Assembly (NCBI RefSeq): GCF_003334815.1
Contig: NZ_QOWO01000091.1
Direction: 5' to 3' (one strand)
DNA length: 1,859 nucleotides
Source of the DNA: Escherichia coli
GTDB taxonomy: Bacteria; Pseudomonadota; Gammaproteobacteria; Enterobacterales; Enterobacteriaceae
A program made the translations under genes and the position numbers. Under the pieces are notes generated by a model. The model was not told where the DNA came from. It did no database searches and saw only the letters and a program-made list of their open reading frames with translations. Numbering within the stretch: position 1 is the first letter of the stretch; every line of letters begins with the position of its first letter. Shown in pieces: positions 1,030-1,123 of the stretch.

Positions 1030-1123
1030 GCGACCGTTCCGGTCGCGCCGCCCCTGTCGCGCCGGAAACGGCGCTCCCTGCACACCTGACGGTGTGTAAG
1101 GCCACTGCGCCTGATGGCGCAGT
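1030..1123. repeat. Tandem array of four perfect short hairpins
   Basis: Checked base by base: 1030..1036/1040..1046 (7 bp, loop TTC); 1059..1064/1069..1074 (6 bp, loop GAAA); 1081..1086/1091..1096 (6 bp, loop TGAC); 1104..1111/1116..1123 (8 bp, loop TGAT). Four consecutive stem-loops within 94 nt. Confidence 0.7.

Follow-up and report, generated by a model that had tools for sequence, protein, structure and literature searches.

What does a row of four perfect hairpins do in the intergenic region between an antirestriction gene and the next gene of a conjugative plasmid? The window analysed here, i.e. the whole stretch of 1,859 nucleotides of Escherichia coli DNA from contig NZ_QOWO01000091.1, carries such a row at positions 1030 to 1123. 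An earlier note, made from the letters of the sequence, had likened it to the multi-stem-loop architecture of single-strand initiation sites recognised by primase, or to a structured RNA domain. We find that the row is the upstream flank of an element that is already known, the single-stranded DNA promoter ssi2, and we propose that it could serve as a folded fence beside the promoter hairpin. Taken together, these two statements form the explanation that we regard as the best one, with a probability of roughly 0.6.

Four perfect hairpins within 94 nucleotides

An exhaustive scan of the sequence returned the four tandem hairpins with the same stems, loops and coordinates as the earlier note had listed. 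H1 (1030-1046) pairs GCGACCG at 1030-1036 with CGGTCGC at 1040-1046, giving 7 bp around the 3-nt loop TTC. H2 (1059-1074) pairs GCGCCG (1059-1064) with CGGCGC (1069-1074; 6 bp) around GAAA, H3 (1081-1096) pairs CACACC (1081-1086) with GGTGTG (1091-1096; 6 bp) around TGAC, and H4 (1104-1123) pairs ACTGCGCC (1104-1111) with GGCGCAGT (1116-1123; 8 bp) around TGAT. The linkers between H1 and H4 are 12, 6 and 7 nt long. All four are assigned to the minus strand, but since the stems are perfect palindromes, the hairpins can form on both strands. A direct repeat, GTCGCGCCG, present at 1042-1050 and 1056-1064 and given no strand, provides H1 with its 3’ arm and H2 with its 5’ arm. The number of repeat units varies, with three in one metagenome copy of the region and one in the related element ssi1, which suggests slippage between them.

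The row was compared with 2000 dinucleotide-preserving shuffles of the intergenic region 703-1431 (64.6% GC), each scanned for perfect hairpins with a stem of at least 6 bp and a loop of 3-5 nt, and the maximum count in any 94 nt was recorded. This maximum was 0 in 848 shuffles, 1 in 1059, 2 in 90 and 3 in 3; four hairpins per 94 nt were reached in 0/2000, as expected from the earlier claim that the array is unlikely by chance even in GC-rich DNA. Over the whole intergenic region, 9 hits were observed against 0.96 expected by shuffling, the 9 hits corresponding to 8 distinct hairpins because H1 is counted with two loop lengths. When folded as DNA, the segment 1026-1126 has a z-score of -5.6 on either strand, and 0/200 shuffles fold as well. 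The row is non-random, and GC content does not account for it. Just past the ardA stop codon lie two more perfect 7-bp hairpins, at 709-726 and 756-773, neither of them followed by a T-run; the second one sits in a 40-nt segment that is repeated upstream of ssi3 (locus L001, 6374-6413).

The individual hairpins differ in how readily they are predicted to form on the minus strand. Predicted pair probabilities are 0.8-0.98 for H3 and 0.97-1.0 for H4. For H1 and H2, a longer, imperfect hairpin spanning both is a competing alternative, and the separate forms reach a probability of about 0.1-0.3. The merged hairpin is predicted over the separate ones because, in the window copy (1030-1074), the cores of H2 (CCGGAAACGG) and H1 (CCGTTCCGG) are nearly reverse complements of each other.

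The row as the upstream flank of ssi2

One IncI-gamma/K1 conjugative plasmid matches the window at 100% identity, and many IncI1 plasmids match it at about 99%. The former carries, in this order, ssb, psiB, psiA, ardA, the module described here, an orf, and further on nikA/nikB; all of these genes share one strand and point toward oriT, and ColIb-P9 is arranged alike. The window thus comes from the leading region of an IncI/K plasmid, which is the part that enters the recipient first. Since the transferred strand extends from oriT into this region in the 5’ to 3’ direction, it corresponds to the minus strand of the window and is the template for these genes. Upstream of the row lies ardA (202-702, plus strand), the stop codon of which precedes the hairpins by 330-420 nt; the hairpins stand on its sense strand. 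Downstream, the first gene served by ssi2 (1431-1859, plus strand) is annotated in the identical plasmid as a hypothetical protein and runs off the window; an NCBIfam search with this gene gave no match.

ssi2 of ColIb-P9 is reportedly to be credited to Bates et al. 1999, and ssiD of the F plasmid to Masai & Arai 1997. The ssi2 entry (AJ238399.1:4353-4678) is identical at 325 of 326 positions to the reverse complement of window positions 1054-1379, which places it on the minus strand, while the other two ColIb-P9 elements, ssi3 and ssi1, are 86.9% and 82.4% identical to the window, respectively. The reference sequences were those in supplementary file 4 of PMC11541004 (Samuel 2024), in which ssi2 is named “Frpo2”. 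The plasmid pESBL is identical to the window across 1000-1140. The lone mismatch between the window and ssi2 falls at position 1092, a G in the window and a T in AJ238399. A T at this position would break a pair of H3, and the complete ColIb-P9 record agrees with the window; the AJ238399 entry may therefore carry an error here.

H2, H3 and H4 fall within the annotated ssi2. H1 lies 8 nt beyond its boundary, and the published coordinates thus leave out both H1 (1030-1046) and the block that precedes it (881-1029), though both are part of the repeated unit. This unit is present three times per IncI plasmid, upstream of ssb, of the gene at 1431 and of a DUF4942 gene; in IncF plasmids, the number is two to four. 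The element in the window and ColIb-P9 ssi2 share the strand and the place between ardA and the next leading-region gene. Judged by its sequence, the element is the already known ssi2, a class-1 single-stranded DNA promoter of the Frpo type, and the hairpins are its upstream flank.

Position of the row relative to the promoter hairpin

Frpo is a long hairpin that forms in single-stranded DNA and rebuilds -35 and -10 boxes (an UP element has also been described) for the host RNA polymerase. It drives the early genes of the leading region, and its transcript can prime synthesis of the complementary strand. In conjugation, the strand corresponding to the minus strand of the window enters the recipient single-stranded, and the hairpin mimics a double-stranded sigma-70 promoter from which, in this family, RNA polymerase would read rightward, here into the gene at 1431. 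Conversion to duplex switches the Frpo/ssi promoter off. Transcription from single- but not double-stranded DNA has been reported for F Frpo, ColIb-P9 ssi3 and pESBL ssi1-3; the last three are class-1 single-stranded DNA promoters with start sites mapped by 5’ RACE (Wen 2025, PMC12672017).

In the window, the main promoter stem-loop of ssi2 is predicted to span 1127-1364 (238 nt, minus strand) and to fold as DNA with 90 nested pairs, its tip at about 1228-1270 being A/T-rich; for the whole intergenic region, the fold of the minus strand has a z-score of -8.5. Candidate promoter boxes were picked by eye from the conserved CCCTGGAC motif at 1205-1232 on the minus strand: TTGTGG (1232 to 1227) and TGGACT (1210 to 1205), separated by a 16-nt spacer, located in the non-template arm and with an A/T tract upstream. 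The motif GTCCAGGG is kept in all copies. A promoter scan of 650-1450 found no double-strand sigma-70-like site, which is consistent with activity in single-stranded DNA only.

H4 is 3 nt from the base of the 1127-1364 hairpin and is followed by H3, H2 and H1, i.e. on the transferred strand the row is 3’ of the promoter hairpin. Because it is immediately 3’ of this hairpin, the small hairpins are not transcribed from the ssi2 promoter. Instead, they are upstream of the transcription unit, on the side where read-through from ardA or DNA synthesis would arrive.

Neither do they belong to the promoter core, to judge from the published F constructs, since the active fragments in these constructs lack most or all of the row. 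The F ssiD sequence as listed stops between the equivalents of H4 and H3, and hence has no equivalents of H1-H3, while the Frpo2-acrIIA4 cassette starts 40 nt past the H4 equivalent and is without all four hairpins. When placed in the leading region, this cassette rescued transfer about 225-fold against Cas9; if it was inserted at its native site, the upstream hairpins may have stayed in place. In the accessible literature, we found no experiments on these small hairpins.

Conservation of the row among related promoters

We assembled about 140 copies of the region, from ten plasmid loci, eight genome loci and 120 metagenome stretches. The eight genome loci came from a scan of a genome collection with the promoter-tip pattern, and blastn returned F-type copies. 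For the metagenome scan, the F-type equivalent of H4 served as the anchor; that helix is invariant by construction and was excluded as evidence. In an alignment of 65 distinct F-type copies (A1), the non-consensus rate was 0.5% in stem columns, 10.6% in loops and 7.3% in linkers, making stem columns about 20 times less variable than loops and linkers. Aligned cells were paired in 93.9% of cases versus 29-55% when the partners were slid. Double changes were seen in one sequence only, and the copies are related. All families fold into the same hairpin row, with z-scores from -2.8 to -5.6.

H1, together with its invariant flank TTGCAGC (1023-1029), is the most widely conserved part of the row. 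It was found in IncI ssi2 and ssi3, in F Frpo1 and Frpo2, in Entomohabitans, in Serratia-like copies and in the distant Salmonella “Frpo*” candidates, while ssi1 keeps only its 3’ arm. The stem is almost invariant, and the loop is TTC, GAA, GGA, TTA, TAC or CTC. One copy with GCATCCG/CGGATGC has two fully compensated pairs, and a few copies have single mismatches. The loop of the window copy (1037-1039), TTC, is also that of most others, but a clade of F-type copies (L007 17312-17449 and L010 10739-10876 among others) has the exact inversion, GAA. Such a flip between unchanged, perfect arms is the signature of a hairpin-mediated inversion or of template switching.

H2 is perfect only in the ssi2 lineage of the window, with its GAAA loop, and in ssi1, with a GATG loop. 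In ssi3 and in 65/65 F-type copies, it reads GCGCCGTGRCCTGCGC, i.e. four pairs, a C.T mismatch and one more pair, and the corresponding alignment pair 48-55 is unpaired in 65/65 copies. For H3, the position is occupied by different stems in different families: CACACC/GGTGTG in IncI, CATCCCGGC/GCCGGGATG in F, GTGCCGGC/GCCGGCAC in Serratia-like copies and ATGCCGGC/GCCGGCAT in Salmonella. It is invariant inside the IncI type; between families, its loops are unrelated and several stem positions have changed on both sides, with one-mismatch intermediates in existence. In IncI, H4 has 7-8 bp; the F type has a longer, imperfect hairpin (GCAACG...CGTTGC) in its place. The IncI form of H3-H4 was present in 2029 PLSDB records, all of them at least 90% identical and thus too alike to show covariation within this form.

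Thus, stem breaks without compensation in homologues, which the earlier note had held to speak against the structure, are the rule for H2, while H1, H3 and H4 keep their hairpin character. Across the Frpo family, what is conserved is a row of hairpins at this position; the exact set of four perfect hairpins is a property of the lineage in the window. A strict unit of four is not required, because H2 is degenerate in most copies and ssi1 is without the 5’ arm of H1. In five metagenome contigs (L038, L061, L134, L137 and L034), the long promoter hairpin is precisely excised, with a junction between GGCGGGTCCC and GAAACTCAA, and these copies still carry the row of small hairpins and the downstream ribosome-binding site.

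Could the row be a functionless by-product, namely GC-rich quasi-palindromes that template switching keeps perfect and that recombination among the 2-4 copies per plasmid homogenises? Several observations can be accounted for in this way. The flip of the H1 loop between TTC and GAA is a single inversion event between perfect arms, the H2 core of the window looks as if the H1 core had been copied in inverted orientation, the direct repeat GTCGCGCCG varies in copy number, the main hairpin itself has been precisely excised in several natural copies, and the array is missing from the published active fragments. On the other hand, a by-product would not readily explain that the stems are so much less variable than the loops and linkers adjoining them in 65 distinct copies, that families too divergent in sequence to be aligned still have a hairpin at this position, or that the flanking segment 881-1029 is better conserved than the neighbouring genes. 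We therefore consider this explanation unlikely.

RNA-level and primase readings

The small stem-loops could also act as RNA, either as a structured 3’ end of the ardA message, with roles in exonuclease protection or in termination and pausing, or as an RNA domain. They are indeed downstream of ardA on its sense strand, and the plus strand folds as well as the minus strand. In addition, some single changes among the copies keep a G.U pair on the plus strand, as in GCGATCG in H1; others keep G.T on the minus strand only, as in CGGCCGC in the Serratia-like H1. The wobble pairs had been considered as a means of assigning the functional strand, and this was dropped since the strand on which single changes keep G.T differs from copy to copy.

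Further evidence argues against an RNA function. A scan against Rfam 15 did not bear out the structured RNA domain suggested by the earlier note: the best match in the array scored 12.6 bits against a gathering threshold of 50 (E = 9.6), and permissive thresholds yielded noise only. The GAAA loop of H2, which had been pointed out as a GNRA-type tetraloop, is confined to the ssi2 lineage of the window, its counterparts being GATG in ssi1 and TGAC or TGGC in ssi3 and the F type; the resemblance to GNRA is thus incidental. An intrinsic terminator scan found no terminator-like site in 1030-1123, and no T-run follows any hairpin of the array; the sole terminator-like site in 650-1450 is outside the array, on the minus strand, and at chance level. 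Finally, the same array stands before every class-1 promoter, whatever the upstream gene. An RNA-level role is consequently very improbable.

Open reading frames over the block were likewise rejected as coding sequences. PGAP calls differ in frame and strand between copies, and the window has stops in the frames concerned. “Hypothetical proteins” have been called at 842-1126 (minus strand) and, in other loci, at L001 6407-6721, L006 8469-8699 and L006 8603-8815; an NCBIfam search with the open reading frames over the block found nothing, and they are very likely spurious.

The other function raised by the earlier note was that of a single-strand initiation site. As for the name of the element, the likeness holds, in that the array belongs to the published ssi2. 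As for the mechanism, it is not supported: initiation at ssi2/Frpo is attributed to host RNA polymerase recognising the long promoter-mimicking hairpin, and not to a primase recognising small stem-loops. A primase entry site of the phage G4 type would consist of SSB-free hairpins that expose a start triplet, from which DnaG or the plasmid primase Sog would prime the incoming strand. Such a site would fit an element named “single-strand initiation”, and an invariant CTG overlaps the 3’ end of H1 (CGGTCGCTGCAA on the transferred strand), from which a primer would enter the array. The short-linker row of hairpins also resembles the complementary-strand origin of G4, with its short hairpins on SSB-coated single-stranded DNA and a CTG nearby. 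But a distant search of 50,697 phage records, with E values up to 1, found no meaningful match to phage origins, including that of G4, nor any similarity to a phage record. Moreover, priming at Frpo/ssi elements has been attributed to RNA polymerase, and the listed F ssiD is without equivalents of H1-H3. We hold a G4-type primase site to be just as improbable as an RNA-level role.

Proposed role as a folded fence

Owing to single-stranded DNA promoters, the anti-restriction and anti-SOS genes of conjugative resistance plasmids are expressed within minutes of entry, and the time during which the promoter is active sets the survival of the plasmid against host defences. In the F plasmid, the hairpin of a class-2 promoter stalls complementary-strand synthesis, the stall is resolved by UvrD, and the delay doubles early expression (Fraikin preprint 2026). 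By analogy with this precedent, in which a stall prolongs early expression, we propose that the hairpin array may be a folded fence that protects the promoter hairpin of ssi2. The linkers of the array, of 3-12 nt, would be too short for SSB binding, and about 100 nt beside the promoter hairpin (about 250 nt with the block 881-1029) would consequently be kept permanently folded. A DNA polymerase, or an RNA polymerase reading through, would come upon this fence first when approaching from ardA. The fence would shield the promoter hairpin from SSB invasion, from read-through and from early conversion, and its switch-off by melting or duplex conversion would be delayed.

Taken alone, this fence role is a tentative proposal, to which we would give somewhat less than an even chance. 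The array and the F class-2 promoter (ssp2 or “Frpo3”; Fraikin preprint 2026) are both folded structures on the incoming strand with no sequence relation to each other, and the delay of duplex conversion and the prolonged early expression seen for the latter are what we propose here for the former. In the F class-2 promoter, however, the barrier is the promoter hairpin itself, as demonstrated by 3’-end capture, whereas here the promoter is of class 1 and the structures are small flanking hairpins; the preprint demonstrates a roadblock for class 2 only. Small GC hairpins may also be no real obstacle to the Pol III holoenzyme with SSB. Since the copies are related and recombining, it could also be the sequence, such as a protein site, that is conserved in the stems, and templated repair between palindrome arms could keep stems perfect without functional selection.

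The comparison with F Frpo/ssiD, i.e. Frpo1 and Frpo2 (Couturier et al. 2023), indicates which parts of the arrangement are shared between plasmid families. The regions of H1 and H2 and the block 881-1029 are 90-95% identical to the window, the promoter tip and the GTCCAGGG motif are conserved, and the order is the same: hairpin row, long promoter hairpin, gene. In place of H3 and H4, F has longer, unrelated stems (one of 9 bp, and an imperfect hairpin of about 39 nt); its main hairpin is only about 64% identical to that of the window, and the H4 equivalent is the only one of the four in the listed ssiD. With the promoter being a known element, no new kind of system is added. What precedes every class-1 promoter is a conserved row of small hairpins, joined in IncI and IncF by a 150-nt block whose conservation exceeds that of the promoter itself. 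Should this flank determine when the promoter is switched off, plasmid establishment would have a new control point.

The conserved block 881-1029 and neighbouring elements

Directly upstream of H1 lies an ultra-conserved non-coding block (881-1029, minus strand) that is common to the Frpo regions of IncI and IncF. Between these two, its identity is 95%, compared with 88% for ssb, 81% for psiB, 68% for psiA and 64% for the promoter hairpin. The block is itself a chain of hairpins, for example at 944-959 and at about 968-993. Some F-type copies have an unrelated block in its place.

These features raise the question of whether 881-1123 is a separate cis-acting module of class-1 single-stranded DNA promoters, either a barrier or a loading or priming site recognised through H1 and its flank. 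As a barrier, it would stall complementary-strand synthesis or read-through and so set how long the promoter stays single-stranded. In the accessible literature, the conservation of the hairpin row and the block 881-1029 are undescribed, and we see a modest chance, smaller than that of the fence, that such a module has been overlooked.

At its other end, the window contains a further element of this kind. Positions 1-194 (minus strand) are the promoter-proximal part of a class-2 single-stranded DNA promoter, the type that drives ardA and klcA. This part aligns at about 85% identity with “Frpo’ 4” of Samuel from an insect metagenome, and its F homologue is the reported replication roadblock. 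The element is repeated upstream of a second antirestriction gene on the same plasmid (L001 4932-5237 versus 11881-12187).

IS200/IS605-type elements and group II introns target single-stranded or hairpin DNA. In several plasmids, IS200/IS605-type (TnpB) elements and group II introns (ltrA) are inserted near the modules, at L003 11580-12755, L006 3142-4831, L007, L009 11617-13284 and L010 5301-6809.
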